A stretch of 64,000 nt of DNA from an uncultured bacterium. GTDB taxonomy: Bacteria > Armatimonadota > UBA5829. A program made the translations under genes and the position numbers. Numbering within the stretch: position 1 is the stretch's first letter; the number at the start of each line of letters is the position of its first letter. The stretch spans positions 3,818 to 67,817 of the forward strand of contig CAVZJH010000057.1 of NCBI GenBank assembly GCA_963775535.1, read 5' to 3'. Below are positions 10,780 to 35,172 of the stretch, one piece after another. Under the pieces are notes generated by a model that searched no databases, was not told the DNA's origin, and saw only the letters and a program-made list of their open reading frames with translations.

Positions 10780-11704
10780 TGATCAGGGGCATCGCCCCCG
10801 CGGCCACTATTCCCTGCTGAACCTGGGAGTTCAATAAGAGGTAGAAGTAAAGCAGCCCTCTGTAAGGCGCCCACCCGTCGATGATCCGGTGGACGCCTTC
10901 ATAGTTTGGACGTTCATCCAGATTCAACCAGCGCTGGAGCTTGCGCTGGTTCCCAACATCATCCGCCGGGTAAACGTTTAGTCTCCCCAGACCACGAAGC
11001 GCCACGTACTCAGCCGTCCACCGTCCCACTCCGCGAATTTCGCGGAGACGCTCTTCCACTGAATCGTCATCCAATGCTTCCAAAGCGGCCAGATCAAGCT
11101 TACCGTCGGTGACCGCTTGGGATATTGCGAGGATGTACTCGGCTTTGCGAGAGCTGAGCCCGAAGCTCCTCAAATTTTCAACGGCGGCGCCGGCCAGATC
11201 TTCGGGTCTCGGAAACGCGTGGCTGCCGCCCACGGGCAGGCCGTATCTTGCGCAGATGCGATTCAATAGTTGAATGCCCAGGACCAGGGTGATCTGCTGG
11301 CACGCGATGGCGTTCGTGAGAGCTTCAAAGACGGAGCCAAGGCGAGGCGGTTTGAACCCGGTCAGCGGTTCCACCAAAGCTGCCAGCCGCTCGTCGGACC
11401 CGGCAAGTTTGTAGAAGCCGCCCATATCGACATCCAGGCCCAGCATCTTTGTCAGAACGGGGGCAATCTCTCCCTCGCGTGCCCGGGCGGCGCCGGGTCC
11501 CGCCAGCGCGACGAGCAGTTCCGGCGACTCAGGTGGACCATTCTGAACGACCGAAACTTCCACCGGCTCACCGTTCACAACAACAACCCGCCTGTATGTC
11601 TGTCCATCCCAGCGGTCCATTTCATTCACCGGCACGCGGCGCAGCACCGAGACCGTGAGGTCCAATCGAAACGGCGAGGCGGGGCGCAATACAAAGCTGG
11701 TCAT
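10754..11704 (-). CDS. DNA-3-methyladenine glycosylase II / HhH-GPD family (AlkA-like)
   Basis: 316-aa ORF with HhH-GPD motif region ([21 protein letters not shown]...[21 protein letters not shown]) and AlkA-like N-terminal domain. Confidence 0.7.
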
Positions 11705-18200: not shown

Positions 18201-18326
18201 ATTCCGGCGAACGGCGTGCCTGCTAATCTGGTAATAGGCAATACCGTGGATATCGGCGGCGCCATGACTACGGGAACGGATGGCGAGAGGTATCTGTCAT
18301 CAGCAACCGTAGCCATCAAGAGCTAA
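15207..18326 (+). CDS. Large secreted multidomain protein: N-terminal glycoside-hydrolase-like TIM-barrel domain, two tandem Ig-like repeats, C-terminal FY(V/I)E...R..GI.V module
   Basis: Signal peptide. N-terminal motif set (IFYFLWVGE, YYHSYDTWMIQQHCRMLEDAGIDVVTFDVTNG) shared with the 25594-29167 protein. Two ~95-aa repeats (DTTPP(T/V)G(T/S)V..NS.AY...GSG..QMR.S.DN.NWS.W). C-terminal module is shared with the two beta-helix proteins. Confidence 0.6.
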   Translation: MRVKICILITAAACLLAAGACYAQDFHQDSWVATDALGRHLPTYDVVGPVKTNKTAGIFYFLWVGEQGNDGPWDITKILAANPTNPAWNTSGSYYFWSEPELNYYHSYDTWMIQQHCRMLEDAGIDVVTFDVTNGYTYSDVLTPLLTTYEQIRAAGGTTPQIMFICNEPIASSYGYPANTPTAQWLYDNLYSTGLYNDLWYHLPGDSRPLVLSPALSSSTSPTIYNYFTTRYAWAWNGGKASNWTWLDDYPQQYGEGPTGTLEELSVSIAEHPVASIGEGNPKNISRGRSFHNSAEQSPPQSAEGLFFNEQWGRALSVSPPYVYITSWNEWIAGRSIYESGQGDPPYFLSQPMTNGETYFVDTYSEEYSRDIEPMLGGHTDDYYYQMIANLRRYKGVRPPPTITNEPITIDGSFSDWTNVAPEYDDYSGDAFNRNSPLVGTPSSTTNTTGRNDFTKTKVAYDSNNVYFYVQTVNPITSYTGTNWMMLFIDSDCNAATGWNGYDYLVDFPIAGHPITASTTPVLQNTGGQNTNWWNWTFMGNATYAINGNQMEISVPRAYIGQTGTNVAFDFKWADNMQAYNVLEFSIDGDSAPNRRFNYRYAAIYPGPQWEFVIDCANSEMSTTTNQEGWMTSGSSSVSNYCITGGCLSGNVSSSSAYVTSPSIPNIDATNNHYIHIRMSNTAGTQAQIWFQTTTDQTFTSAKSVSFTTTDDGQFHDYVIDMSTNSHWTGSTNTIRVYPINASSGLFNIDFVRVLKDSPMFVGPDTTPPTGTVSINSGAAYTGTTAVTLTTTSSDVGSGVAQMRFSNDNSNWSAWAPVATSAAWTLATGDGTQSVYAQFMDAVGNVSSSSSASILLDTTPPVGSVTYNSNSAYVSSTTSTAYLYMSATDAGSGLYQMRISSDNVNWSSWMTYAATRIWSVSSGYGVKNAWVQFSDKAGNVSQSCEASTYKVQYSGYNIVTAKGLGDTMTVGVSAKVVTAIYGDRFYVEEPNRSSGIMVIPANGVPANLVIGNTVDIGGAMTTGTDGERYLSSATVAIKS

Positions 18327-18383: not shown

Positions 18384-18490
18384 GGTGCGTATTGCCCGTG
18401 TATCTGAAGCCGGCTCTTTAATGCTCTCACACACAGTCGCAGTTTGATCGCAATAGTTCACTAGTTCTCAGAATCCGAAAAAAGTTCACC

Positions 18491-20009
18491 GTAAGAGTTC
18501 AGGATAGGTGAGTATTTGGGGGCTGCACATCTGAAGGCGACAATTTCCATGACAGTATCATCCTTTAGACAAAGGTACTTTTGGTGCCTTTGTCTAAGTG
18601 GGATGTATGAGTGAGTCGGATGGTATTTCCCGAGCAGAGCTCGTGGCCATAATAGTGGAGTTGCGCCGTGCAAACGCCGTCTTGCAGGAGCGGGTGGAGT
18701 TTCTTGAGGCTGAGGTAGAGCGCCTGCGCTCTCAGCTTCCCAGCGGTGGGACGAAAGTTGTGCCGGAGTGGGTCAAGCCAAACCGCAAGGAACGTCGCGA
18801 GGCCGAACGCAGTGAGCGCAAGAAGCGTAAGAGCTCATTTGTACGTCGTCGCGAGATTCCTACCGAGGTCCATGAGCACGCTCTTGAGCAGTGCCCGAAG
18901 TGCGGGCGTAAGCTGTGTGGCGGATGGATACACCGGAGACGTCAGTATGTGGAGATTCCGGAGACTCCGGTGCGCATAGTCGAGCACAGGATCATAAGGC
19001 GCAAATGCGGGGTATGCGGAACACAGTGCACTCCCAAAGTGGATCTTTCGGCGGAGGTGTTGGGCAAAGCACGTGTGGGGGTGAGGCTTATGAGCTTCAT
19101 TGCTTATCTGCACACGGTCTGCCGGGTTCCATTAAGGACGATAAAGGGCCATCTAAAACTGATATATGGCCTGGATTTGGGCCTTGGGGAGCTTTCCGAG
19201 TTACTTCATGCGGTTTCGAAAGCGGCGGAGCCGGAATATGTTTATCTTCTTGACGAGATTCGTGGTTCTCCTGTGGTGAATGCCGATGAGACTGGTTGGC
19301 GCGAAGACGGCATCAACGGATATATATGGAGCTTCTCCACTCCGGAGCTGCGTTACTTTGTATACCGCAAGAGTCGTTCGGGTGAGGTGGCAAAGGAAGT
19401 TTTGGGTGAAGATTTCGATGGGGTTGTAGTCAGTGACTTCTACTGTGGCTACAGCGTCCTTTTGACGCGTCATCAGCGCTGCTGGGTGCATTTCTACCGT
19501 GACCTCAAAAAGCTCGTCGAGGCATATCCATCGGAGGTATCGGTCGGGGAGTGGGTAGACAAGGTTCTGAGCATATACAATCAGGCAAAAGAGTTCTCAA
19601 GCGATGATGAGCGAGTCCGGATAAGGCAGCGGGAGATATTCGAGCAGGTATTGCTTGAAGTTGCCAGTCCATATCTAGGCACTGATAAGCCCCAACGGAT
19701 ATTGGCCCAACGTATCGAGAGGTTCCTGCCGGAGTTATTCATCTTTGTCGAGGACCCACGTGTGCCGTCTGAAAACAATGCTGCCGAGCGGGCAGTTCGA
19801 CCTTGCGTAATAGCTCGAAAGGTCAGTGGCGGAACCCGCTCAGCAAAGGGCTCTGATACAAAGGCAGTCCTAATGAGTATGTTCGGGACGTGGCTGCTCA
19901 GGGGCCAGGACACAATAAGCATGTGCAGGCAAATGCTCATCTCGGCCAATCGTCTCAAATGCCAGGTGACAGACAAAGCACTTCTCTCTCACGTAGCCTG
20001 AACTCTTAC
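18491..20009 (+). mobile_element. Complete IS66-family insertion sequence of the single-ORF (ISBst12-like) type, 1519 bp, with 8-bp target-site duplication
   Basis: Terminal inverted repeats GTAAGAGTTCAGGATAGGTG (18491-18510) and GTAAGAGTTCAGGCTACGTG (reverse complement of 19990-20009) match at 18 of 20 and begin with GTAAG. Flanked by identical AGTTCACC at 18483-18490 and 20010-20017. Single transposase ORF inside. An 11-bp perfect hairpin (TTAGACAAAGG...CCTTTGTCTAA, 18565-18597) abuts the tnp start codon. Confidence 0.85.
18598..20001 (+). CDS. IS66-family transposase (TnpC-like, 467 aa)
   Basis: N-terminal leucine zipper, CPKCG...C..CG zinc-finger, then motifs ADETGW, NGYIWSF, SDFYCGYS, CWVHFYRD, NNAAERAVRPCVIARKVSGGTRS, all characteristic of IS66 TnpC. 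Confidence 0.9.
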   Translation: MGCMSESDGISRAELVAIIVELRRANAVLQERVEFLEAEVERLRSQLPSGGTKVVPEWVKPNRKERREAERSERKKRKSSFVRRREIPTEVHEHALEQCPKCGRKLCGGWIHRRRQYVEIPETPVRIVEHRIIRRKCGVCGTQCTPKVDLSAEVLGKARVGVRLMSFIAYLHTVCRVPLRTIKGHLKLIYGLDLGLGELSELLHAVSKAAEPEYVYLLDEIRGSPVVNADETGWREDGINGYIWSFSTPELRYFVYRKSRSGEVAKEVLGEDFDGVVVSDFYCGYSVLLTRHQRCWVHFYRDLKKLVEAYPSEVSVGEWVDKVLSIYNQAKEFSSDDERVRIRQREIFEQVLLEVASPYLGTDKPQRILAQRIERFLPELFIFVEDPRVPSENNAAERAVRPCVIARKVSGGTRSAKGSDTKAVLMSMFGTWLLRGQDTISMCRQMLISANRLKCQVTDKALLSHVA

Positions 20010-20024
20010 AGTTCACCCGTTCAC

Positions 20025-20053
20025 TTGACAATGACGCGATTGTGGGATACATT
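20025..20053 (+). promoter_or_regulatory. Sigma70-like promoter TTGACA-17-TACATT for the 20133 gene, 16 bp from the IS66 right end
   Basis: Read directly; not tested. The IS insertion point is 8-15 bp upstream of the -35 element. Confidence 0.4.
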
Positions 20054-20132
20054 ACGGTAGCATGCATAACCGCGGGCTTGCCTACTTGGCCTGCAGCTAT
20101 TGTAGCGATTCTCAACTGCGGGAGGAAATGCA

Positions 20133-23100
20133 ATGAGTGGCAAGTCGGTTTTAGTATTGTGCCTGGTCGCTGTTTGTCTTGTTTGTTGTGCCTCGCAGGC
20201 GGGCTGCAGCACGTTCTATGTTACCTCGTCCGGAAAGGACACCAACTCCGGTCTTAGTTGGCAGGCTGCCAAGGCGAGCGTCGCGGGCGGCGTCAAGGTC
20301 GCGAGTGCGGGCGATCAGGTCTGGGTCGCCGCGGGGACTTACTCAGGAGGCATCACTGTGAACTCCGGCGTCGCTCTCTACGGCGCTTTCGCCGGGACTG
20401 AAACGCAGCTCAGCCAAAGAAATCTGGCGGCCAACCTTACCGTTCTCCAGGGCGGGGGCAGCGCGGGCAGCGTCGTCACCATTGCCGCCAACGCCACCTC
20501 AGCGACTGTGTTGGACGGGTTCACCATCAGGGATGGCACCGGCACCGTAGGAGGATACTACGGCGTGGACTGCTACGGCGGCGGAGTATACTGCGGCATA
20601 GGAGCTTCTCCTGTCATTTCACACAATATTATTACCTCGAATTGGATAAATGGTTTGTCGTTTGAATATGAAGACGAGGAGATTGACGGATGCGGGTTTG
20701 GCGCAGGTATCTACTGCGATGATGGAAGTCCCGTTATGGCTAATAATTTGATCTTCGACAATGTAGCGGATAGCCAGGGTTACGGTTTCGCGGACGGTTT
20801 TGGAGGAGGCGTTATGTGTCAGGGCGGACAACCGATCATCGTCGGCAACACCATTACGTCTAATACGGGGAATTATGCGCTCGATATTGAAGACACCAAC
20901 TCCAGCACCATTATCAACAACATTGTCGCCTTTAATACCGCGGGGATTTACGAGACGACCTATGGCCCAATAACTATTGGTAGCAACTGTGTGTACGGGA
21001 ATAGGAGCGGCAACTATTATGGGCAGGATTTGACGGGCCAGGACGGTAATATTTCGTACGATCCGCTGTTCAAGTCCACGAACGACGACGACTACCACAT
21101 CAACGCCCTCTCACCATGCTGCAATACCGGCGACGATGCTACTGCCGCTTTATATCCACTGGATCTCTACGGGCAGTCGAGGACACTCGGAGGCCACGCC
21201 GACATGGGTGCGATCGAGTCGGACGGCACGATGTGGCCGGCGACCGTGACGACACCCGTGATCGGACTCGCCTCGGGAGTGCATACAACAGTTCAGTCCG
21301 CAACCGTGACATGCGCTACCGGCGGCGTGACCATACACTACACGCTAAATGGCGTTGACCCGACCGAATCCGATCCCGTGGTCGCGTCCGGATCAAGTGT
21401 AACCATCGACTACTCCGCGACCCTCAAAGTCAAAGCATTCGTGCCGGCTTGGACGCCAAGCGCTGTCTCCTCCGCCTCATATGTGATCCGCGCGCCGGTC
21501 GTAGTGTACGTAGACCACAACGTTCTCTCCACCGTGCAGGATGGAACGTCGTGGTCGACGGCAAAAAAGACAATATCCGCAGGTCTTTCCGCCGTCGTTT
21601 CGGGTGACCAGGTATGGGTAGCGCAAGGAACCTACGTTGAGCAAGTTACGCTGGTAAATGGCGTCGCATTATACGGTGGTTTTCCATCGGGCGGCGGTGA
21701 CTGGAGTTCCCGCACCCCGAAAACGAACCAGACAATTGTTGATGGCAACCAGGAAGGCAGTGTCATAACGTCGCCGTCGGGAGCGAGCGCGACGACGGTT
21801 ATTGATGGATTCACTATCCGAAATGGAGTTCCAAACGGTTTCGGCGACGGCGGAGGGGTGTACTGCTCGTCCTCCTCGCCGACTGTTTCGCACAACACGA
21901 TCGCGGCTAACTACGCCTTTGGGGTTTTCAGTGACCTCTCCTCCTCACCGCAGATTTCAAACAACATTATCACGGGAAACGCCGAGGCCGGAATATACTG
22001 TACCTCAGCGGCAATATTCAATAACTTGATTTCGGGAAACTCTTCAACAAACTGCAGTGGAGGGATAATCTGCCTTGGCAATGCGACCATATATAACAAC
22101 ACTATCACCGGAAACAGCTCAGATAGCCGCGGCGAAGGCGCAGCGATATACTGCGGCGGTGGGTGTCCCACAATATGCAACAACATTGTGGCATTCAATT
22201 CGGCGGGGATCTTCAATGAATCTGGTGGTCCAGTCTTGCGCAATAACTGCGTGTATAACCCGGACGGGATCAACTACATCTATCTGTCGGCGGGCAAAGG
22301 AGACATTCAAGTTGATCCAAAGCTGGTCGCAGTCGCATACGGCCAGGTTCACATCCAGCCGGACTCGCCGTGCGTAGACGCGGGCGATGACAGTGTGGTG
22401 CAGCCGGGGTGGGTCGATATGGATGGGCAGACCAGGATTCAGGGCGCGCATGTGGACATTGGGGCCGACGAATCGGACGGAACAACCTGGACATACGCCC
22501 CCGCGATAGTGCGTGTGAGTCCCGCCGGAAATGATTCCAATGACGGCTCCAGTTGGGCTTTGGCAAAGAAATCGGTCCAGGCGGGCATAAACGTTGCGTC
22601 TTTAGTCGGTGGCGAGGTATGGGTCGGGGCAGGTACTTACAACGAGTGTTTAATTCTTACCCCTTATGCCTACCTCTACGGCGGTTTTGCCGGAACTGAA
22701 ACCTCAAGGGACCAGCGCAACTGGAATACCAACGCCTCTATTCTTGACGGCGGGGGCGTTGGCGGCGTGGTCATCTCAGAGACCGGTCACAAGGTCACAG
22801 CCAGCGGGATAGATGGTTTCACAATTCGACATGGAAACGGCTACGGAATATGCTGCGCGGGTTCTTCGCCGACCATTGCTAACAACACTATCACGGCAAA
22901 CACCACGAGCGACAGCGGTAGTGGCACAATATACTGCTACGGCTCCTCACCGACAATTCTCGGTAACATTGTCTCAGGAAACACGGCTTCGAGTAAGTTG
23001 GATTTTTGCGCCGGTGCAATCTACTGCGAGGAATCCTCACCGACCATCTCAAACAACACGATCTCGTCAAATTCCGGGAGCGGCGGCGGCAGCACTATAA

Positions 23101-24458
23101 TCTACTGCGATGATTGCTCGCCAACTATCTCGAACAACAATATCACGGCAAACACCGCCGCTGGCAACGGCGGAGCGATATATTGCTGGGATTTCTCCCC
23201 GACGGTGATCTCGAACAATAGTATCACGGCAAATAGCGCAAGTGGCGACGGTGGCGCAATTTACTGCCAGGGCGGTCAGGTCACCATATGTAACAACACA
23301 ATCGAGTCGAACAGTGCGAACTGCGGCGGCGCGATATATTGCTGCGGTAGTTCTCTGGCAACAATCTCAAACAACACAATTGCGTCAAACAAAGCGAGCT
23401 GCGGCGGTGGGATATACACCTGCGACTCCTCTGCGGCGGTCTCAAACAACACGATCGCGGCAAACACTGCAGGTACCAGCGGCGGAGGGATATACTGCAG
23501 TAACTCATCCTCGCCGAATGTCTCCAACAACATATTGGCGTTCAACTCGTCTGGAGTATATAACTCATCGAGTTCTCCAACTCTGCGCAACAACGATGTC
23601 TACAATCCCAGCGGAGCGAACTACACAGGGTTGTCGGCGGGAACGGGGGATATCTCAGCTGATCCGATGTTCGTGGACTCTGCTGGTGGAGATTACGACA
23701 TAGCGGCAGGCTCTCCGTGCATCGACGCCGGTTGGAACGGCGCCCCGGACATCGGGACTGTGGATATACACGGAAACCCGCGCATAATCAATTCTATTAT
23801 CGATATCGGAGAGGATGAGTGGCCCTACACAGCAAACGGCATCCAAAACACGAAGCACGCTGCCTCCGGCGCGCTTGCTTACATTCACGCCGGGATAGTC
23901 AGCGCCGTCTTTGATGACTGCTTCTACATCGAATGCGCCAACCGCACCACCGGGATTCGAGTAGTGAGTTCAGCGTCCGGCATTACGGTGGGAACGAAAG
24001 TGGACGTCACGGGAACGGCGGAGACTAATGATGACGGAGAGCTGTACGTCAACGCAAGCTCAGTCGAGTCAATTGGGAGTGGCGCGGTTGCTCCTGTCAT
24101 GTTGAGTGGCCGCTGCGTTGGCGGCGGCTCGCTTGGACTGCAGGGCGGCGTCTGGAAAGATCAATGGACCCTCACTGACGGTGGAACCTGGGGGCAGCAG
24201 TGCCTGCCTGCCTGCGGCCTGAACAATATCGGGCTTCTCGTCAGGATTAGCGGCAAATACACACCTGTTGATGACCACACATTCACCGTAGACGATGGCA
24301 GCGGCGAACCTGTAAAGTGCACCGTCCCCGATGGTGTCATTTTAGGTTCGGGCTGGACGTATCTTAGCGTAACCGGTATTTCGAGCTGCGAGATGATCGA
24401 CGGTGAGCCGCACCGGCTGGTTCGGGTTCGAACGGCCGGCGATATCGTGGCTTACTAG
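20133..24458 (+). CDS. Giant secreted right-handed beta-helix (PbH1 repeat) protein, 1441 aa, built from three DUF1565-like head + PbH1 units plus a ~230-aa C-terminal region
   Basis: Signal peptide. Three occurrences of the DGSSW..AKK..QAG....GDQVWVA.GTY head motif at about aa 30, 470 and 790. Dozens of ~22-aa repeats (SPTISNNTI.ANSA..GGAIYC). C-terminal region ends ...HRLVRVRTAGDIVAY. Confidence 0.75.
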   Translation: MSGKSVLVLCLVAVCLVCCASQAGCSTFYVTSSGKDTNSGLSWQAAKASVAGGVKVASAGDQVWVAAGTYSGGITVNSGVALYGAFAGTETQLSQRNLAANLTVLQGGGSAGSVVTIAANATSATVLDGFTIRDGTGTVGGYYGVDCYGGGVYCGIGASPVISHNIITSNWINGLSFEYEDEEIDGCGFGAGIYCDDGSPVMANNLIFDNVADSQGYGFADGFGGGVMCQGGQPIIVGNTITSNTGNYALDIEDTNSSTIINNIVAFNTAGIYETTYGPITIGSNCVYGNRSGNYYGQDLTGQDGNISYDPLFKSTNDDDYHINALSPCCNTGDDATAALYPLDLYGQSRTLGGHADMGAIESDGTMWPATVTTPVIGLASGVHTTVQSATVTCATGGVTIHYTLNGVDPTESDPVVASGSSVTIDYSATLKVKAFVPAWTPSAVSSASYVIRAPVVVYVDHNVLSTVQDGTSWSTAKKTISAGLSAVVSGDQVWVAQGTYVEQVTLVNGVALYGGFPSGGGDWSSRTPKTNQTIVDGNQEGSVITSPSGASATTVIDGFTIRNGVPNGFGDGGGVYCSSSSPTVSHNTIAANYAFGVFSDLSSSPQISNNIITGNAEAGIYCTSAAIFNNLISGNSSTNCSGGIICLGNATIYNNTITGNSSDSRGEGAAIYCGGGCPTICNNIVAFNSAGIFNESGGPVLRNNCVYNPDGINYIYLSAGKGDIQVDPKLVAVAYGQVHIQPDSPCVDAGDDSVVQPGWVDMDGQTRIQGAHVDIGADESDGTTWTYAPAIVRVSPAGNDSNDGSSWALAKKSVQAGINVASLVGGEVWVGAGTYNECLILTPYAYLYGGFAGTETSRDQRNWNTNASILDGGGVGGVVISETGHKVTASGIDGFTIRHGNGYGICCAGSSPTIANNTITANTTSDSGSGTIYCYGSSPTILGNIVSGNTASSKLDFCAGAIYCEESSPTISNNTISSNSGSGGGSTIIYCDDCSPTISNNNITANTAAGNGGAIYCWDFSPTVISNNSITANSASGDGGAIYCQGGQVTICNNTIESNSANCGGAIYCCGSSLATISNNTIASNKASCGGGIYTCDSSAAVSNNTIAANTAGTSGGGIYCSNSSSPNVSNNILAFNSSGVYNSSSSPTLRNNDVYNPSGANYTGLSAGTGDISADPMFVDSAGGDYDIAAGSPCIDAGWNGAPDIGTVDIHGNPRIINSIIDIGEDEWPYTANGIQNTKHAASGALAYIHAGIVSAVFDDCFYIECANRTTGIRVVSSASGITVGTKVDVTGTAETNDDGELYVNASSVESIGSGAVAPVMLSGRCVGGGSLGLQGGVWKDQWTLTDGGTWGQQCLPACGLNNIGLLVRISGKYTPVDDHTFTVDDGSGEPVKCTVPDGVILGSGWTYLSVTGISSCEMIDGEPHRLVRVRTAGDIVAY

Positions 24459-24586
24459 ACGCTGGGTGCTGAAAACGCGGCGCAGTGCAATAATGCGGTA
24501 TACTACGACAGGCAGCCTGAAAAACCGGTAAAACAGGTGGGTTCCTGTTTGCGAACCGGAAAACCAGGGCTTACAGGAGGATCGAT

Positions 24587-25576
24587 ATGAAGCACTCTGT
24601 TCGCACAGCGGTCTTGATAGTCCTCGGCATTATAGCGGTGTCGGGCTGCGGTTGGTGCACGACTGTAAAGAAAGAATTCACGCTTCCCGTTTGGGCCGGC
24701 TGTCCATTTCGTCCAAGAATATCCGGCGACTGGATAGTCGACGTGCAGAACAAAGATGACAAAGGCTGCGGCTCAACTTCCATTGGCATTATGCTCTACA
24801 ATATTGCTACAGGGAAGTCATATATGGCTTATGCAAGGAGCTGCCGGTTGGTGCTCCATAGCCGGCACGCTGGCTGTGTGGACGGGAAAAACCACAAATA
24901 TCCAGGGTTTCTGTACCTCTCAAAGGTGACAGAAGCGGCTCGGACAACCCATCGAACATGGTCATGGTAGATGCGAAAGACTGGCGTTACTACACGCCGC
25001 GGGTGACCAATGGGCCTGCATTTGCTCCTGTGGTTTGGGCGAATTACGTCGCTTACGAGGGCAGCAACAGTCAGATTTATCTGGTAGATATGAACGATGG
25101 CAAGATAATACAGGTTTCCCAGTCGGGCACTCAGAATACTAATCCTCAGATTGGGCAGAACCTTGTTACCTGGGAAGAGCATACCGACAAGCGGCAAATA
25201 TGCGGCTATCGCATAGGCAGCGGCGAATGTCTACAGATTACCGATGACCCCGGTGAAGAAAACTGCGGGGGTTATACTGATGGCAAGACCGTGGTTTGGT
25301 ATAACAAAGGAATTTCCGCGTATGATGTGGCAACCCGCGCCAGGACGCAGGTAAGCCGCGCTGGTTACTACCCGGACGTGAGTGACGGAATTGTAGTATA
25401 CCTCAAAGGTGTCAACAATCATATCGCAGTTTTTGGATACGATCTGGCTGCGCGAGAAGAATTTCCGCATAAGCAGCGGCTACTCCGATTGCGGCCCATC
25501 GATCGACGGCAACCGGGTCATCTGGTGCCTGGGCAATAAAATCTACTGTGCCGAGCTCGATCGCGGCGCAAAGTGA
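24587..25576 (+). CDS. Beta-propeller-type repeat lipoprotein (repeats of the form ..VVW......IY.YD...), broken by two frameshifts near 24960 and 25470
   Basis: Lipoprotein signal (LGIIAVSGC). Repeats such as VVWANYVAYEGSNSQIYLVDM, GKTVVWYNKGISAYDVATR and GNRVIWCLGNKIYCAEL. Translation runs frame 2, then frame 1, then frame 2. Confidence 0.4.
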
Positions 25577-25593
25577 GCGCCCGTTAAGTCCGC

Positions 25594-28500
25594 CTACTTC
25601 TTTGTCTTATCCACAACCGGCGCCGGTTCCGCCGCGATTGCCGGCATATTGGCGCGCTCCAACGTAATCGCCACGATTTTCATGTCGGTGTTCTTCGGCA
25701 GGGTTAGGCTCGCCAGCGTCTTCGCGGGATCGAGCTGGATCGTGTAATGGTAGAGATAGCAGTTCGTCCCGATCTCATCGCCGCCGTGGCTGTGGCGATG
25801 GCGAATAAGATAACCTACCTGCTCGCCGTGCTTGGGACCCTCCCCCCAGTCGCTCATCTTGATCGGCGCGACTGCCGCAGAGCCGCTGTAGTTGAGCGAA
25901 ATATCTCCCGAAGCGTCACCGTTGGACGATGCTGCGAGGATGTGGAGCGCGACATAGTTCGTGTTCTCAACATCTACCTTCTGACCGCTGCATGCCACGG
26001 CGTTGTTCTTTTCTTCCGCCGACTTCTCGGGATAGAGGAAACTTATGCGTCCATCGGGATGGGGTGCGCGGTCCCAGTTGTAGCCGGAGGGGTAAACCTG
26101 GCTTGCCATCTCTGTGGCGCTGGCGTCGGGCGGCAGGTATTCCGACGGAAAGCTGGAGCCTTTGCCGTCGAAATCGCCAACCGTTCTGTTCACATCCGGG
26201 CTTGCCGCGCTGATGTCGTATAACTTACTCAGGTCAACGAAGGCCAGTTTGCCGTTGTTGATCTCGATACTCACCGGAAGGATGTCGCCCCCCCGTGTAA
26301 TCGGAAGAGTGGAGAGCCACTCATCGTCGATCATGATGTCCCACACAAGCACGTATTGACCGTCGTACTTAGGCAGCGCAACCTTTGCGGTAACAACCGT
26401 GGGCATTTCCGGCTGAAGATTCGCCGGGAGTGGCGTCGAAGGGTTGTCCCACTGCATGAGAGTGCCGTCTACGTGGTACCAGTGATAACCGATCCTGGTT
26501 CGCTTGCGGTCCCACGCAGTGACGCCGTCGTTCTTGATAACGACCTTCACATCAACGACCTGGCCGGCCACCAGCTTCGGCGGAATGTTACAGTCCGCTA
26601 TCCTTGCGCCGTAGTCAGAATCGAAAATGTCCACTACGCGGTCGAGCGTATTCGAATTGAGCTCTAAAAACCACTTGTCGCCGCTGAATATATCGAATCG
26701 GAGCTGATAGCTCCAGGGATAGTCCTGCTTCCAGCTCGGGACAAGGCTCCTGTCGGGCTGCGACAGGTTCAGGTCGACCACAAACTCGGCAATCTCCCCC
26801 GGCTTGCAGTCCTTGAGGAGAATCGCCCGGACATCTCTTATCGGAACCTCTTCCTGCATTTCGTTCGGGTTATCGTGAGTATAATTGGCCACCTTAAACA
26901 GCCTGCATCCCAGCTTGGTAACGCCCTTGGGCCAGACTTGGGAACCGTCGTTGCGCGCCCGCACAACCGCGGCATAACTCTGGCCGGACACCATCATCTC
27001 CGGGGCATCGCACGAAAGATAAGTCGCGGACCACTCAGGCGTCTTCCCAATAACGGTCGGCACTATGAGCGCCTGGCTTCCGAACGCCGAGAACCACTTG
27101 TTATCGGCAAGCCGAACCATCTCAAAACGCAGCTCGCAGTTGCCTTCCGGGATCGGCGTCCCGGCCGCGCTCATTGGCGCGATCCCGATGTTCACCCTGA
27201 TTGCTTCGCCCGGCTGCACATCTCTTTCCAGAGGCCGTTTGATCTTGCTGTCTCCCAGGAACCGGCCGCTCTTATACCATCTGTAGGACAAGCCAAAGCC
27301 GTCAGAGACTCGCCATTGCGAATTGCCGGTGTTTCTGATGGTTAGTTCGGCCTGGGCAAACTGACCGGGAGCCACCGTCTTTGGCACATTATAGCTCAGG
27401 AACTGAGCGTCGAAGTCCCGGTTTCCGAGGAAGCGCTTCACGTTGGCGCGTGTCGCGTCGATATACTTCCGGCCATATTCACGGCTCGCGCACATATCGC
27501 TGGCCTCGTGAAGCTCGTCCCAGCCATCGCACACGACCCAGAGCGGCGGCTTCTGGAGGATGGAGAGCCAGTCTTTTTCATATGTATCCCCGCCGAGCCT
27601 GGGTCTCATCAGCGCATTGCCCGCCTGAGCTACCGCAGAGTTGTCGAAACCGGCCCCGACGGATGCTACGCGAATACGCCCGCCTTCGTCCTGCTTCGCT
27701 CCAAGTCCCGCGCCGTAGGTGCAGATGCCGTCGCATACCTGAACCTTGGGTTCGTAGTCTTTCGATGCGATCCAGACCAGTTTGCGCCCGAAGTCGTGCT
27801 CGTATTTTTCATTGCAGTATTGCATAAAGCTGGAATCGAAATCGGAGAAAAAGCTGCTGGTATAGAGCACCACTATATCGGCCTGCCCGCCCGCGTCGGG
27901 CTTACCGGTCTGAGCGGTTGCGCGATAGTCAACAGGAATCCGGTCATAGAAATCCTTGATCATGCCATAGAAGGTGCGCTCGACCTCTTCGTTCTTTAGA
28001 TTCGGGCTTTGCGCCGTAGGCAGCCTGCATCGCGGTAGTGTCGAAGAACATCGCCACCAGGGGATATTGCTTGCCCTCATCGCGCAGTTCGTCGAGAGCG
28101 GAGATCATGCAGTCCAAACCCTTGTCCGCGAAACCTGCCCGGTCGGCCTTGTCGCCCCAGTAGACCGGCAGAACCACGTCTATGCCGGCGGCGATGATAT
28201 CGGAAAGCTGTTCCTTGTGCCACTGTACTCTATCGTAACTGAACCATGGTCCGGCGTTTCGGACGGGCGAGTCCTGAAGCTGCAGGGCTCCGTCAGGTCC
28301 CACGATGTGGCTGTAAGGCGCAGACTTTCGCGGATCCGCCTGATACCAGTAGAAATAGTGCGTCATCACCATTTTGTGTGGTGGAAACTTAGCCTCGTAG
28401 ACGAAACCTTCGGGCACCGGAAGGTCAATGGCGAACGATGTGTTGGCTGTCCACTCTTTATTGGAAATTATGCCGTCGATCAGAGGAGGACGGACTATGG

Positions 28501-29167
28501 TCTTGGAGGAGAGGATCTTCTCCGCGCTCATCGTTGCAGCGCCGAACGTATACTGCGCGAACACGAGGTTCACCCACTTGGCGGGACACATAGTATCATC
28601 TTCAGTCTTCACACGCGGCGAGAGGCTTACAAACTCGCCGCTCTTGTCGCCGTGCCGGTGAACCAGGATGTTGAAACTTACCATGTCGCCGAACTTGGGC
28701 GTCGACGTTTTCATCGCCAGCCAGGGAATAGCTATCTCCACCGTGTAACCCATGTCGATATCGTCGCTGTTGTTGAGCGTTCCCTGGACCGTGCAGCCGT
28801 ATTTGAACGACCACACAGGCACCGGCTCGAATGTTCCCTTGTCCGTTCCCACCTGGAACTGCGCGCCGCCCGCGGCGGAGACTGTCATATTGATGCACGC
28901 GGGGGTTACGCGAGCCGAGTGCTTGTCGTTTGCCTCCACGAATACCGAGACCGAGTCATCTCCCGAAACATCCGCATTGGGAGTGGTATGTGTGCCCTCG
29001 ACATCGGGGCAGTCCACTTTGAATGCGAGGTAGAAGTATGTTTCGTCCCAATTGGTGTAGCACTGGACCCGGTCTTTGGTCACGACCTCCTGGGCCAGGG
29101 CATACGTTGCGCAAAGCATCAATAGCGCACACATGAAGACGCAGACAAACAGCTTTTTGAGCTCCAT
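25594..29167 (-). CDS. Large secreted multidomain protein: CBM9/DOMON-like N-domain, GH-like TIM-barrel domain paralogous to that of the 15207 gene, three or more CARDB/Ig-like beta-sandwich repeats; one frameshift near 27950-28080
   Basis: Signal peptide at 29167. TYFYLAFKVDCPD (CBM9-like). HYFYWYQADP...FSYDRVQWHKEQLSDIIAAGIDVVLPVYWGD matches the 15207 protein's motifs. Repeated modules (VAPGQFAQAELTIRNTGNSQWR / MVSGQSYAAVVRARNDGSQVWPK / LVAGQVVDVKVVIKNDGVTAWDR). The ORFs at 27944-29167 and 25594-28080 overlap in different frames. Confidence 0.6.
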
Positions 29168-29262
29168 TTTCGTCCTTCCATAGAGAGGCTGACGGCGGTC
29201 AGCGGTCGACTAGCAATGTTGCTGCTTCGGCTGCATGCAACGAAGCGAATAATAACCGCGTT

Positions 29263-29383
29263 TCCACCCTCACCCTGGTCCTCTCGTAGGGAGAGGGAAT
29301 AGAATGTGCGCGATTACAGTCAACATAACGGTAATAGCTCCCCTCGCCCTAGCAGGGAGAGGGGCCGGGGGTGAGGGTAGAAA
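29263..29383. repeat. Complex palindromic element (outer arms CCCTCACCC...GGGTGAGGG, inner CCTCTC...GAGAGG and CCCCTC...GAGGGG hairpins) between two minus-strand genes
   Basis: Seen directly. Lies between the aminotransferase stop and the start of the 25594-29167 gene. Candidate terminator or REP-like element. Confidence 0.4.
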
Positions 29384-29415
29384 CCTGCCAAGACAAATAA
29401 ACGTATCACACGTTC

Positions 29416-30576
29416 CTACCGCTTCAGGCTGCTAACGAAGCGCCCTATACGCTCGATTGCCATCTCTATTTTATCTATTGAAGTCGCGTACGAGCAGCGA
29501 ATATGGCCTTCTCCGCATTCTCCGAATGCGCTTCCGGGCACAACCGCTACTTTTTCTTCAAACAGAAGCCGCTCGCAGAACTCGTCCGAACTCAGAGAAG
29601 TTTCCTTTACCGAGGGAAACGCGTAGAACGCGCCGCCCGGCATAAGGCATTCGAGGCCCGCGTCGTTCAAGCCCTTTACGATGACTCTCCGGCGCTGGCC
29701 GTACTGCTCGATCATCGATTCACTTTCGTCGTAGCCATTCTTGAGAGCTTCCAGAGCCGCTACCTGGGCCATGATCGGCGCGCACATCATCGTATACTGG
29801 TGAATCTTCATCATCGCTTCGATGACATCCGGAGCAGCAGCCGCGTACCCGATCCGCCAGCCGGTAATGGCATAGGCCTTCGAAAAGCCGTTCAGCAGGA
29901 TCGTGCGCTCGTAAGCGCCGGGCAGGGCCGGAAGGCACGTATGGGCTCCATCGTAGGTCAGGCGGTCGTAGATTTCGTCTGAGACAATGAAGAGATCGTG
30001 CTTGCGCGCTACATCCACGATTCCCTGCAGCGTTTCGCGGCTTGCGACAGCGCCGGTGGGATTGCTTGGATAGCTGATCCAGACAGCCTTGGTCTTAGGG
30101 GTGATGGCCGCCTCGATCTGCTCCGGCGTTACCGCAAATCCGTTTTTCGCGTAAGTGCACACCGTCACGGGTACTCCGCCGGCAAGGCTGATGCAGGGCT
30201 TGTAGGCCACAAAGCACGGCTCGGGACAGATCACTTCATCGCCTGGGTTCAGGATCGTGCGCATGACAAGGTCCATGCCCTCGCTCACGCCCACCGTGAT
30301 CAGTACCTGGTTCTCGGGATTGTATTGGAGGTTCTCACGGGCATCCAGGTTGCTCGCAATTGCCTTGCGAAGCTCAAGCAGGCCGTAATTGGAGGTGTAG
30401 TGCGTGTGCCCGTGTTCGAGCGAGTATATGCAGGCTTCGGTTATGCGCCAGGGAGTGTCGAAGTCGGGTTCGCCCACGCCGAGCGACACAACATCTTTCA
30501 TCTGCGACACAATATCGAAAAACCTGCGTATTCCCGACGCAGGCATGGATTGGACTACCTTGGAAATCTCTTTCAT
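29416..30576 (-). CDS. Pyridoxal-phosphate-dependent aminotransferase, class I/II (AspC family)
   Basis: 386 aa. Motifs GVGEPDF, NPTG, SDEIYDRL, NGFSKAYAITGWRIGY (the lysine of SK is the PLP-binding residue). Confidence 0.85.
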   Translation of the reverse strand: MKEISKVVQSMPASGIRRFFDIVSQMKDVVSLGVGEPDFDTPWRITEACIYSLEHGHTHYTSNYGLLELRKAIASNLDARENLQYNPENQVLITVGVSEGMDLVMRTILNPGDEVICPEPCFVAYKPCISLAGGVPVTVCTYAKNGFAVTPEQIEAAITPKTKAVWISYPSNPTGAVASRETLQGIVDVARKHDLFIVSDEIYDRLTYDGAHTCLPALPGAYERTILLNGFSKAYAITGWRIGYAAAAPDVIEAMMKIHQYTMMCAPIMAQVAALEALKNGYDESESMIEQYGQRRRVIVKGLNDAGLECLMPGGAFYAFPSVKETSLSSDEFCERLLFEEKVAVVPGSAFGECGEGHIRCSYATSIDKIEMAIERIGRFVSSLKR

Positions 30577-30663
30577 GACTTGCGACAGCCTTTCTCAGTT
30601 ATCAGTTCATTGCCTTTGGTTATCAGTTGTCAGCCGATAACCGAACACTAACAACTGATGGCT

Positions 30664-31146
30664 TTACGGGGTAACGGCCAGTCTGCCTTCGGCTGCTACT
30701 TCTTCATAAATATCGCCGTCGACTTTGTATTTCTTGAGCAGAAAGCTCGACCGCGTGGACAGGACACCTTCCAGCGTAGCCAGCTTCTCGGCCACGAAGA
30801 ACGCCACGTCGCGCATGGTCTTGCCCTCGACTACCACTCTCAGATCGTAATCACCCGATACCAGATATACCGAGTGGACCTCGGGGTAGTTGTAGATTCG
30901 CCTAGCGACGTCGTCGAAGCCGACCCCTCTAGATGGGCTGACCCGGACGTCGATGAATGCGAATACCTGCTCCTTGCCGGCCTTTTCCCAGTCTACAATA
31001 GCTTTATAATGCCGGATCTGGCCGCTTTCTTCCAGTTGCTTGACGGCCCTGCTAATCTCCTCCTCGGTTCGGCCCAGCATCACGGCCATCTGCGCCGAGG
31101 AGGTGCGTGCGTCTCGCTCGAGGATCTTTAGTATCTGCTTTTCCAT
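30664..31146 (-). CDS. Lrp/AsnC-family transcriptional regulator
   Basis: Likely start at MEKQILKILERDARTS (HTH), with C-terminal RAM domain (FAFIDVRVSP...VYLVSGDYDLRVVVEG). Divergently adjacent to the aminotransferase, a typical Lrp arrangement. Confidence 0.8.
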   Translation of the reverse strand: MEKQILKILERDARTSSAQMAVMLGRTEEEISRAVKQLEESGQIRHYKAIVDWEKAGKEQVFAFIDVRVSPSRGVGFDDVARRIYNYPEVHSVYLVSGDYDLRVVVEGKTMRDVAFFVAEKLATLEGVLSTRSSFLLKKYKVDGDIYEEVAAEGRLAVTP

Positions 31147-31319
31147 TGTTCTTCCTAATCCTAGAATTGTCCAAATTCTACAACCTACCGGTTTAGCTGT
31201 CAAACCGACCGGGTTTTTGAAAACTGCCCTTGACGCCTGCCTGCTTATGGGCTACACTGCGTAGTGACAAGTATGCAATGGATAAATCAAACAACGGGCG
31301 TTTTGCCAACGGAGCGTGA

Positions 31320-34300
31320 ATGATGAGATTCAGGGTGCGGATGCTAAGCGCGTGTGCCGTAATGCTTCTTTCAATGCTGTCATCATGCGTGCAAGCGGGC
31401 AAGATCGTCTATGTCGACAGTTCAACAGCGTCGGCGGGTGACGGACTTACCTGGGCGACGGCAAAGACAACGGTCACTGCCGGGCTTGCCGCATCGGCGT
31501 CAGGCGATCAGGTCTGGGTGGCGCAGGGAACGTATGTTGGGCTCATTCACGCTGGTAAACGGCGTTGCGTTATACGGCGGTTTTCCGTCGGGCGGCGGAG
31601 ACTGGAGTTCCCGCGACTCTAAGGCCAATGTGACAATCCTGGACGGCGGCCAGGGTGGCAGCGTGGTCACTTCGCCGCCCGGAGCGACCGCAACCATAGA
31701 TGGCTTCACAATCCGAAATGGCAGCAACTTCGGAATAAACTGCGTCCGCATCTCCTGGCCGACGATTTCCAACAACATTATTATTGGAAACAGCGGCGGC
31801 GGGATTAACTGCGGCGTCTCCTCGGCGACTATTTGCAACAACACTATCACGGGGAACAGCGCAACCAATAACGGCGGTGGGATTAACTGCGGCACTGCCT
31901 CCTCGGTGACGATATCCGACAACACCATCACGGGAAACAGCAGTTACGATGCCGCGATATACTGCTACAGCGTCACATCGGCAGCCATCTCCAACAACAC
32001 CATCACTGGGAACAGCAGCTGTGGGATTTGCTGCAACTCGTCCTCTTCGGCGACCATTTCCAACAACAACATTACTGGAAACGGCCCGACATCTGACGGC
32101 GGCGGCATATACTGTTATAGTTCCTCCTCGCCGACGATTTGCGACAACACGATCGGCGCGAACAGCTCAGAATATGGCGGCGGGATTTACTGTGACTCGT
32201 CCTCTTCGCCGACGATCACCAACAACACTATCACCGCAAACAACGCAGACAGTGGCGGCGGGATATACAGCGCTTGCTCAGGCCACTCTTCATTGAAGAT
32301 CTCCAACAACATCGTGTCTTTCAATTCATCAGGGATATACAGCGGTGGAGGTTCTCTCGTCTTGAGGAACAACTGCGTCTACAACCCCGATGGCGCCAAC
32401 TATTCCGGGTTATCAGCGGGAATGGGTGACATTCAGGTTGATCCCAAGCTGGTCGCTGTTCAATATGGCCAGCTCCATATCCAGCCGGACTCGCCGTGCG
32501 TAGATGCCGGTTACGACGCCGCGGTGCAGCCGGAATGGGTGGATATGGACGGACAGCCACGCATTCAAGGCGCGCATGTCGATATCGGCGCGGACGAATC
32601 GGATGGGACTGCGTGGACGTTTTGCTCCCACGGTGGTGCGCGTGAGCGCTACAGGAAACGATGCCAATGATGGTTCCAGTTGGTGCTTAGCAAAGAAAAC
32701 CGTGCAGGCGGGAATCAATGCGGCATCGGCCGCCGGTGGTGACGTGTGGGTTGCTGCCGGAACTTACAACGAGCAGGTAACGCTCACGGATTATGCTTAC
32801 CTCTATGGAGGCTTCGCCGGAACTGAATCCGCCGCGGACCAGCGGAACTTCAGTGCCAACAGCACAATTCTTGATGGCGGAGGAGGAGAGAGCGTTGTCG
32901 TCATGGAGGTCGGAAACAAGGCGAGCGGGGTAGATGGGTTCACAATCCGTAACGGAAACGCTGACTACTTTGGCGCTATAGTCTGCTATTGCTCCTCGCC
33001 GACTGTTTCCAACAACATAGTCACGGGAAACAAGGAAAGCGGTATATGGTGCTCGAATTCCTCGGCAACGATTTCCAATAACATCATCACGGGAAACAGT
33101 GAAGACCCAACGTACTCCGGCGTCGGCGGCGGCATATACTGCTGGAGCTCATCGCCGACGATCTCCAACAATACCATTACCGGAAACAGCGCAGTTGATG
33201 GCGGCGGGATAGAATGCGACGGCCCGGCGATTATTTCCAATAATATCATCACAGGAAACAGCGCAAATGCCGGCGCAGGAATAGAGTGTGACTGGTGTTC
33301 GGCGATTATTTCCAATAACATCATCGCGGGCAACAACGCAGGAAGCAGCGGTGTCGGCGGCGGTATATACTGCTGCGACGACTCCTCGACGCCTATTTCC
33401 AACAACACAATCACAGCAAACAGCGCATACGAAGGCGGCGGTATATACTGCGACGACTCCTCTTCGCCACCGGTTTCCAACAACGTAGTGTCTTTCAATT
33501 CGTCGGGACTCGATAGCGGCGGCGGTTCCCCGGTCATGAGGAACAACTGCGTCTATAACCCAGATGGGGCCAACTACTCCGGGTTATCAGCGGGAACGGG
33601 TGACATTCAGGTCGATCCAAAGTTTGTCAGCTTGACCACAGGAGATTATCATTTAACCGCCGGTTCACCGTGCATCAATGCCGGCTGGAACGCAGCGCCT
33701 GGAATTGGATCGGTCGATATGGACGGGAACCCCAGGATATTGCCGGCTGGTGGAACCGTGGATATCGGGTGCTATGAATATCTCGCTCAGATGAGCGGCT
33801 CCGGGCAGGCTAAGGCTGGCTCTCAACAAGTAGCAGTTAAGCTGGCCGGCAAACCTGTAACCGCGGTATTCGCTGGGGAGTTCTACATAGAAGATACTGA
33901 CCGCTGCGGCGGGATTAAAGTCGTATCAAGTCAAGCTGTAAATCCCGGCGACCTCGTGACGATAACTGGAAATACGGCTCCGGATAATGGAGAATGTGCG
34001 CTTTACCCGGCGTCCATCTCCGTCACCCCGGGCGCGCCGAGCAATGTGCCGGGGGCGCTGCTGCTGACCAATCGCTGCATTGGTGGTGGAGCTTTCTTCT
34101 GGAACGCGAACGGCAACGTCTGCGGTCAGGAAGGGGATCACGGATGGGTTCGGCTTGAACAACATCGGTCTTCTGGTTCGGGTTTGCGGGACATTTGCCT
34201 ATGTCGACAGCCAAACGTTCACCCTCGATGATGGCAGCGGCGCAGTGGTGAAGTGGACCGTGCCAGACGGCGTTACCTTGAGCTCGACCTTGACCTATGC

Positions 34301-34394
34301 CGGCGTGACCGGTATCTCGTCCTGCGAGATCGTCGGCAGTGAACTGCACCGGCTCATCCGGGTTCGAACACAGAGCGATATAGTAAGTTATTAG
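31320..34394 (+). pseudogene. Paralogue of the 20133 beta-helix gene (two DUF1565-like head + PbH1 units plus the same C-terminal region), interrupted by three single-base frameshifts (~31535, ~32598, ~34100-34160)
   Basis: About 75 percent identity to units 2 and 3 of the 20133 protein over long stretches. Translation switches frame 3, then 1, then 2, then 3. Two junctions reconstructed by eye: an extra base in GTTGGGCTCATTCACGCTGG, and TTTT versus TTT at ~32598. Ends ...HRLIRVRTQSDIVSY. Either a genuine pseudogene or assembly indels. Confidence 0.65.
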
Positions 34395-34631
34395 AATCTT
34401 GGCTCGTTAGTTGGTTTGCCGGCAAGCAGCAAGCGATTGTGCCCGCGCAGGCAGCCTTTGTAACCTCAAGCACCGATCGTGTCAACGCGCCGTATGGTGT
34501 CGGTTGAGCGCGAGTTGCACTTGGCCTAACACCCAACACCCAACACCCCTAACCTCAATCCTAAATCCTCAGCTTGACCCAGTGTCCCTCTGCTGTTATA
34601 CTCATAATCACTGAAATGGAGCCCACGCTAT

Positions 34632-35172
34632 ATGAATGAAATGACCTTTACATGCGCACGGCACCCGAGCGTCGAAACCGGCCTCAAATGCGCCAGTTGC
34701 GGCACACCTATCTGCCCGAGCTGCCTCGTGCAGACTCCTGTCGGGATGAAGTGCAAATCGTGCGCCTCGCATAAGCGGCACTTTGCTCTCGCCTTCGCTT
34801 CTGCAGGTCTCGCTTGGCGCGGCGGTTGCGCTTCTTGCTGGGGCGATTGCCGGGTGGGGAGTGGAGTTCAACTTTGGGTTCTTTACCCTTTTCGCCGCCT
34901 TTGCCTACGGTGGATTTGTTGGGGAAATGGTGCTGCGAGCGGCGAGCCGAAAACGCGGCATAAAGATCGAAGCGGCTACAGGCGCGGCCCTCGTAATCGG
35001 AGCGCTCGGCGCTCGGATGCTCGTCGCAGGGATTATGCTGCATGCGCCCGGCGGCGCCATCGTCCCATTCGGCGTTTGGAACGTGATCATCGACCTCGTG
35101 ACCTCACCAATACCGCTTGCAGCCCTCGTGATCATCGTCGCCAGCGCAGTCAGCCGGATAAAATACATTTAG
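34632..35172 (+). CDS. Zinc-ribbon (Cys-rich, B-box-like) N-terminal domain fused to a 4-TM membrane domain; frameshift near 34770
   Basis: Frame 3 gives CARHPSVETGLKCASCGTPICPSCLVQTPVGMKCKSCAS. Frame 1 opens exactly there and encodes four clean hydrophobic helices. Downstream frame-3 sequence is Arg-rich nonsense. Confidence 0.4.

Follow-up and report, generated by a model that had tools for sequence, protein, structure and literature searches.

Two genes for large repetitive proteins, found close together in the DNA of an uncultured bacterium of the Armatimonadota (UBA5829), raise the question of whether a duplicated gene has fallen into decay, or whether both copies are whole and the breaks seen in one of them stem from its assembly. 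The stretch analyzed (hereafter, the window) comprises 64,000 nucleotides, positions 3,818 to 67,817 of contig CAVZJH010000057.1 (assembly GCA_963775535.1). Gene A (20133-24458, +) is an uninterrupted open reading frame (ORF) of 1441 codons, predicted to encode a secreted protein whose three beta-helix units are followed by a C-terminal module. Gene B (31320-34394, +) is its two-unit paralogue, which encodes 1023 aa after three single extra bases are removed; as assembled, its span is made up of four overlapping ORFs (31320-31622, 31411-32670, 32504-34231 and 34080-34394), passing from frame 0 to frames 1 and 2 and back to 0. In a first-pass annotation, one intact copy beside one with three frameshifts was taken to fit a surface gene that had been duplicated and had come under relaxed or diversifying selection. 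The analysis presented here leads to another answer: A and B are very probably ancient, constrained paralogues within a large family of secreted modular proteins, and the shifts in B are almost certainly consensus errors.

Architecture, paralogy and age of genes A and B

The repeated units of the two proteins were delimited with two hidden Markov models (HMMs), built here from the five heads and the five tails of A and B, which matched three heads and three tails in A, and two of each in B. Both proteins match the Pfam Beta_helix family PF13229 well above its cut-off of 25.9 bits (E = 9.2e-37 and 126.5 bits in A; E = 9.7e-44 and 149.2 bits in B), and both have a NosD-like Pfam match (1.7e-23 in A). 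In addition, they score above the cut-offs of TIGR03804 (38.7 bits in A and 63.7 bits in B; cut-off 19.45) and of the choice-of-anchor Q model NF041518 (59.7 bits in A; 63.2 bits and 2e-17 in B; cut-off 25). The DUF1565 family (PF07602) was detected in B at 1.8e-22 and 80.3 bits (cut-off 20.3). Pfam does not list A for this family at E <= 0.01, and the head HMM matches all three heads of A at 156-185 bits, so that A would count as a carrier of DUF1565-type heads only by way of its homology to B.

All features of A and B lie on the + strand. The A protein starts with a hydrophobic N-terminal signal peptide, as read from the sequence. Its unit 1 (aa 24-365; 20202-21227), outlined by the HMM envelopes and the coil list, comprises a head, approximately four coils and a choice-of-anchor-Q-type tail; it has no counterpart in B, and its nearest relatives are the first units of proteins from other organisms (52-55% identity), not the remaining units of A or those of B. 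A CHB_HEX_C_1/Fn3-associated domain (aa 380-447; 21270-21473; PF13290 at 1.2e-7, PF13287 at 2.9e-5) is located between units 1 and 2. Unit 2 (aa 454-783; 21492-22481) has five coils, with the NF041518 match at aa 739-781, and unit 3 (aa 789-1232; 22497-23828) has nine; according to the HMMs and the alignment, they correspond to units 1 and 2 of B, respectively. The protein ends in a module of two tandem OB-fold barrels (aa 1230-1441; 23820-24455), as judged from an AlphaFold2 model and Foldseek. The N-terminus of B fits a lipoprotein-type signal peptide by its lipobox pattern (LSS followed by C). Unit 1 of B (aa 26-429; 31395-32607), assigned from the head and tail HMMs and the coil list, has eight coils, and unit 2 (aa 435-822; 32624-33781) has seven. 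They are followed by a C-terminal tandem OB module (33782-34391) of a different subtype from that of A. Upstream of each gene there is a promoter-like site, identified by consensus match only: TTGACA-17-TACATT at 20025-20053 for A, and TTGACG-17-TACACT at 31230-31258 for B. Moreover, the ATG of A is preceded by the ribosome-binding site GGGAGGAAA, and that of B by GGAG.

B proved to be collinear with units 2 and 3 and the C-terminal region of A in tblastn searches, which returned matches in three frames; the segmental paralogy described at first pass, with three units in A, two in B and the order of units given there, was thus confirmed. Likewise, the identical stretch QVWVAQGTYV that had been pointed out is present in the alignment, together with TLVNGVALYGGFPSGGGDWSSR. 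At the nucleotide level, blastn found four collinear segments of 70-74% identity, and identity over the aligned codons was 63%. A MAFFT alignment of residues 445-1441 of A with the corrected B protein gave 558 identities in 921 aligned pairs (60.6%, or 50.8% of the 1099 columns). The earlier figure of about 75% protein identity is therefore too high for the proteins as a whole and applies to a central block only (A690-860), to which identities of 78-82% are confined. Aligned block by block, amino-acid identity was 68-77% for the heads and 80-81% for the tails of A unit 2 and B unit 1, 67-69% for the heads and 62% for the tails of A unit 3 and B unit 2, 53-60% for the coils, and 48-51% for the C-terminal modules.

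To date the duplication, synonymous and non-synonymous differences were counted over the aligned codons by the Nei-Gojobori method. The proportion of synonymous differences (pS) between A and B ranged from 0.59 to 0.81 in every block, with 0.67 overall, corresponding to dS > 1, and dN/dS lay between 0.06 and 0.31 across all blocks. As the synonymous sites are saturated, the duplication must be ancient, and on these codon comparisons both genes are under purifying selection, and have been for nearly their whole history. Saturated pS and low dN/dS in every block are at odds with a duplicate under relaxed or diversifying selection. Consistent with an old duplication, P0050, a two-unit protein encoded in another metagenome, is a closer match to B (54%, 879 bits) than A is (51%, 803 bits).

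The same comparisons bear on whether the paralogy exists at all, since assembly might create a second copy by expanding or collapsing a repeat or by duplicating part of a contig, a possibility already raised at first pass. The repetitive nature of the genes speaks for such an artefact, and nothing else does. Against it, 37% of the nucleotides differ between A and B, their synonymous sites are saturated, and the longest exact word common to the two genes is 26 nt (located in a tail; 12-20 nt in control regions of equal size). Moreover, both genes and the genes between them occur in an independent assembly, described below. We thus regard the chance of an assembly duplication as negligible.

Relatives of A and B also indicate how the proteins are put together. 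The C-terminal module of A is 75% identical to that of a further homologue, P0059, and the module of B resembles that of P0050. P0059 itself (1011 aa, on a contig of 92,575 bp) is a mosaic, resembling B in its signal peptide and first head (74-81%), and A in its last tail and C-terminal module (70-86%, as compared to 31-70% to B). From the module subtypes and this mosaic it follows that the family evolves by reshuffling of units and modules.

Frameshifts in B and across the window

Each of the three shifts in B consists of one surplus base that moves the frame by +1, and removing one base at each site restores an ORF of 1023 codons with zero internal stops. At 31548, there is an extra C (ATT[C]ACG, as compared to ATTACG in the related strain discussed below), and the corrected peptide reads GTYVGLITLVNG. 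At 32620, TTTT stands in place of TTT, and the corrected peptide GTAWTFAPTVVRVS matches GTTWTFTPVVVRVS of P0059. At 34133, GGGG stands in place of GGG, and the corrected peptide GQEGITDGFGLNNIG matches GQRGITRGSGLNNIG of P0050. The corrected B protein therefore reproduces the residues of its homologues at all three sites. The three frameshifts reported at first pass are thus present in the assembled sequence; what they say about decay depends on the rest of the window.

Other shifts were located by a codon-usage frame scan, followed by Pfam searches on the pieces. Including those of B, at least 12 single-base shifts were found within the 64 kb, nine of them +1 and three -1, and several fall in housekeeping genes. 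In the phosphoketolase gene (xfp; ~9405), XFP_N lies in one frame, and the end of XFP_N, XFP and XFP_C lie in the next. In mfd (~50196), UvrB_inter is in one frame and the remainder in another; in fabZ (~62150), positions 1-57 and 59-136 of the FabA profile are in different frames. The gene for the 2-oxoacid dehydrogenase E1 component carries two shifts (~38100 and ~39769), with Transketolase_C in a different frame, and the gene located between A and B (25594-29167, -) carries one at ~28001. A glycosidase gene of 2.2 kb (46539-48680, -) is split into four pieces by three shifts, as many as in B. Regarding Mfd, its relatives in the protein database (at most 83% identical) are all approximately 1173 aa long and contain UvrB_inter, and the sole entry with 100% identity is the same truncated piece of 843 aa. 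JGI metagenomes were searched with exact patterns across the second site of B and across the mfd site, without a match.

A related strain allowed these positions to be compared directly. Contig_36752 of ENA ERZ25039519 (38,150 bp) was found through P0378, a 98%-identical homologue of the aminotransferase adjoining B. It is syntenic with window positions 19472-40437, contains both A and B with the same intervening genes and, across B, is 99.4% identical to the window by substitutions. None of the six window shifts that it covers (31548, 32620, 34133, 28001, 38100 and 39769) is present in it. A base-by-base alignment of 19472-35171 revealed 51 indel events, with 38 extra bases in the related contig and 13 in the window. 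The related contig has private indels of its own where the window reads through; 15 of these fall in B, 8 in A and another 10 in the intervening gene, and none of its 38 private extra bases is common to the window. Two assemblies thus carry non-overlapping single-base indels, in housekeeping and surface genes alike, and therefore we attribute the shifts in B to consensus error rather than to inherited inactivation. As single-base indels are frequent in both sequences, the pattern of one intact and one frameshifted copy is uninformative on selection, and the shifts, real as features of the assembly, lose their value as evidence of decay.

B could instead be a true pseudogene, recently inactivated and under relaxed selection. 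Three shifts in 3.07 kb are above the window average, the between-strain pN/pS of 0.55 is not distinguishable from 1, and a relative in the metagenome-assembled genome (MAG) contig CALJES010000008.1 contains two in-frame TAA codons. Such an inactivation is hard to reconcile with a 99.4%-identical copy in an independent assembly that lacks all three shifts, with the same kind of single-base shift breaking fabZ, mfd, xfp and the E1 gene, with 1023 corrected codons without a stop, with dN/dS of 0.06-0.31 relative to A, or with the promoter-like and ribosome-binding sites kept upstream of B. Altogether, we consider it improbable that B is a pseudogene.

A second alternative is that the shifts act as phase-variation switches, generated by slipped-strand mispairing at homopolymers. 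Two of the three sites do lie in T4 and G4 runs, and poly-G switches are known from the beta-helix surface families encoded by chlamydial pmp genes. The runs at the sites are only 3-4 nt long, however, and no run in B exceeds 5 nt, as compared to the homopolymers of at least 7 nt that are typical of such switches; the first site is outside any run. In addition, three simultaneous off-switches in a single gene would make no regulatory sense, and housekeeping genes carry identical shifts. Phase variation is therefore a very unlikely explanation. Programmed +1 frameshifting was likewise considered for B and rejected, as the three sites have no common motif.

Several observations weigh against reading the shifts as errors. 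The related contig is itself very noisy and thus an imperfect referee. B holds 3 of the at least 12 shifts in approximately 5% of the coding sequence (binomial P ~0.02-0.04). Its between-strain pN/pS of 0.55 (12 non-synonymous and 7 synonymous changes) exceeds that of A (0.26) and, on so small a count, is not separable from neutrality. The relative in CALJES010000008.1 carries its two in-frame TAA codons among intact neighbors, so real decay does occur in the family. Furthermore, the case for errors, while strong, is indirect, being drawn from assembled sequences, and the biochemical function and localisation given here for A and B are deduced throughout. Weighing these points, we still hold that B is most likely an intact, expressed gene, and that the three single extra bases private to this assembly would be errors of a noisy, probably long-read, assembly. 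In practical terms, automated annotation would mislabel B, mfd, fabZ, xfp and further genes as pseudogenes, and any pseudogene call in this window is suspect because the residual indel rate of the assembly is high.

The between-strain comparison also revealed an uneven distribution of divergence. Identity to the related strain is 98.8% in A, 99.4% in B, 100% in the part of an insertion sequence next to A that is covered, and 99.7% in the small gene at 24587-25539, as compared to 93.9-95.0% in the genes between and beyond A and B, and 91% beyond 35.2 kb. The high-identity segments extend over 19472-25500 (IS66 element, A and the small gene) and 31100-34300 (B), within a background of 92-96% identity. 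Purifying selection was rejected as the cause of these islands, given that synonymous divergence itself is low there (0.029 in A and 0.009 in B; 0.145-0.19 in the neighboring genes). The sequences suggest a recent exchange of the A and B segments between lineages or a gene-specific sweep, or else a peculiarity of the two assemblies.

Coils, C-terminal modules and the surroundings of A

The repeat structure of both proteins is far above chance, as seen in the Pfam Beta_helix matches (9e-37 for A and 1e-43 for B). The PbH1 coils had been described as near-identical repeats of 66-72 bp and, for that reason, as substrates for recombination and copy-number change. Near-identity was not observed: coil periods vary from 60 to 120 nt in A and B, and in an all-against-all comparison of the 33 coils, mean nucleotide identity was 0.48-0.64 per unit pair (around 60%), with a maximum of 0.78. 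Tandem Repeats Finder reported four short arrays with periods of 72-81 nt, approximately two copies each and 77-82% matches. Since the longest exact word common to two coils is 19 nt, the coils are poor substrates for homologous recombination at present. Copy number itself has changed, with five coils in unit 2 of A and eight in unit 1 of B, and nine in unit 3 of A and seven in unit 2 of B; judging from the sequences, this is a change of the past, over evolutionary time, and not a recent one. No coil-sized indel was found in A or B in the base-by-base alignment of the window with the related contig, and thus there is no sign of current copy-number change between these strains. The earlier suggestion therefore holds as far as past changes in coil number are concerned, and not for the idea that the coils recombine readily.

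The last 212 residues of A were modelled by AlphaFold2 as two OB barrels (pLDDT 93.6, pTM 0.88), and Foldseek returned only OB-fold matches for this model, led by YgiW (1nnx; E = 3.7e-4) and followed by the OB domains of SSB, RPA and AsnRS. No Pfam or NCBIfam model matched the module above threshold; below it, Pfam hinted at BOF and tRNA_anti-codon. A search with a profile built from the module found 5181 cluster representatives at E <= 1e-3, and in 124 of the 150 best ones no more than 30 residues separated the end of the match from the C-terminus; most of the others look like tandem copies. The domains that precede it vary widely (beta-helix, RCC1, FG-GAP, SBBP/DUF7948 and beta-propellers), and its conserved motifs are FYIE..R..GIRV, GER, LGGG, GLNNIGLLV, DDGSG and VTGISSCE. 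The gene upstream of A (15207-18326) ends in a single barrel of this type (~18129-18323), the first of the pair. We infer a putative surface-retention or targeting domain, which may play a role in Armatimonadota and neighboring groups comparable to that of the T9SS C-terminal domain or the SLH domain. That the module is an undescribed domain for surface anchoring or targeting and, at the same time, that A and B move between diverged lineages by recombination and gene-specific sweeps is, as a joint proposal, tentative, and we would sooner doubt it than accept it.

Immediately upstream of A there is an IS66-family insertion sequence (18483-20017, +; element 18491-20009), with the transposase encoded by a single ORF of 467 aa (18598-20001) that matches DDE_Tnp_IS66 at 1.9e-40 and NF033517 at 251.8 bits (cut-off 180). 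Its inverted repeats (18488-18512 and 19988-20012) start with GTAAGAG and show 88% complementarity across 25 nt, and the sequence AGTTCACC is found on either side as a target duplication of 8 bp; both features are characteristic of IS66 elements. The element follows the terminator of the upstream gene and precedes the promoter region of A, ending 15 nt upstream of the -35-like box, and the related contig carries the same IS66 beside its copy of A. Truncation of the upstream gene (15207-18326) by the insertion was considered and rejected, as this gene is closed by a stop codon of its own and a strong terminator hairpin ahead of the element, and the target duplication is intact. On the other side of A, the small gene at 24587-25539 consists of two overlapping ORFs that encode a lipoprotein signal followed by TolB-like beta-propeller repeats. 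A frameshift has apparently divided a single gene here, and the window has an extra base relative to the related contig at 24834 and at 25462.

Family membership and comparison with known systems

Among 8000 candidates scored, at least 4738 homologues were found at E <= 1e-10, which, where named, belong to Armatimonadota, Phycisphaerae or Planctomycetes. Among the homologues listed, the best relative of B is 54% identical, and a scan of GTDB genomes found relatives of A with only 40-47% identity. The relatives have 2-5 units per gene, with several paralogues per genome or contig. The Mfd and the aminotransferase of the window also have Armatimonadota relatives, and no synteny with the window was found around P0050 or around the protein P0001. 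Exact-sequence queries with A, the 575-aa piece of B, P0059 and the protein P0258 matched no recorded contig. By sequence comparison, A and B are new sequences of a known and very common kind of protein, and the locus adds two members to a family of multi-unit beta-helix exoproteins, very large and still uncharacterised, in a poorly studied phylum. No functional study or characterised member was found in the literature on Armatimonadota beta-helix, choice-of-anchor or DUF1565 proteins.

Two relatives deserve mention for their own condition. The one in CALJES010000008.1 (9899-13081) is a two-unit gene with in-frame TAA codons at 10859 and 11630, one of which replaces a conserved Gln; it is probably a real pseudogene in its organism, and stop-codon recoding was rejected because the neighboring genes are normal under the standard code. 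Another relative, in the MFD02416 MAG (CAVQDB010000005.1, 9896-13775), is split into two overlapping ORFs with a frame change near 11163-11287, and therefore broken beta-helix genes recur in assemblies of the phylum.

Taken together with the paralogy and the error reading of the shifts, these data can be arranged into the following account, which we consider very probable. A protein of this family consists of a signal peptide, 2-5 units of 330-440 aa and, often, a C-terminal tandem OB module; each unit has a DUF1565-type head and a choice-of-anchor-Q tail, between which 4-9 PbH1 coils form a right-handed parallel beta-helix. The two genes go back to an old duplication, B matching units 2-3 and the C-terminus of A, and both copies were kept by purifying selection, while the number of coils and the C-terminal modules were rearranged in the course of evolution and not recently. 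Both proteins are presumably exported; their beta-helix units could bind or process a glycan or act as an adhesive surface, and the OB module could hold the protein on the cell surface or direct it there. Two leads would merit attention, provided that they are confirmed: the tandem OB module at the C-terminus, widespread and so far unannotated, and the islands of low divergence that contain A and B.

Regarding the fold, a search of unit 2 of A against PDB chains gave no sequence-level match. Unit 2 of B was modelled by AlphaFold2 as a right-handed parallel beta-helix with coils of approximately 22-27 residues (pLDDT 91.0, pTM 0.91), and the best Foldseek matches of this model are all beta-helix proteins, with 10-16% identity, TMq of 0.45-0.59 and E = 4e-8 to 1e-3. 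They include the GH136 lacto-N-biosidase (7v6i, 5gqc), Rhombotarget A (9cdv; TMq 0.58), the pectate lyase Pel9A (1ru4; TMq 0.55), the AlgE4 epimerase (2pyh), PL6 lyases, phage tailspikes and the PfbA adhesin (4mr0). The model supports a glycan-binding, glycan-processing or adhesive role for the units, without deciding among them. Unlike A and B, none of these solved enzymes and adhesins has units concatenated in tandem. Similarly, each half of the C-terminal module is an OB barrel like that of the periplasmic BOF protein YgiW (1nnx; TMt 0.66); the module differs from YgiW in that it joins two barrels in tandem at the C-terminal end of large secreted proteins.

Partial matches to two further families cover the head and the first coils. 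Against the NosD model TIGR04247, A scores 46.9 and B 71.2 bits (cut-off 300), and against the model of Leptospira LIC10774/LIC10365 (NF047854), B scores 66.4 bits (cut-off 380) and A has no match; neither protein is thus a member of either family. The chlamydial Pmp proteins, some of which are switched by poly-G frameshifts, are likewise a paralogous, repeat-rich family of beta-helical surface proteins, and some relatives of A and B match PF02415 (Chlam_PMP). A and B differ from them in having neither an autotransporter barrel, nor a PF02415 match, nor a long homopolymer. The closest counterparts are the DUF1565/choice-of-anchor Q beta-helix proteins (PF13229/PF07602, TIGR03804/NF041518) annotated in MAGs of Armatimonadota, Phycisphaerae and Planctomycetota, which have the same domains in the same order and the same multi-unit build, and from which A and B show no essential difference.

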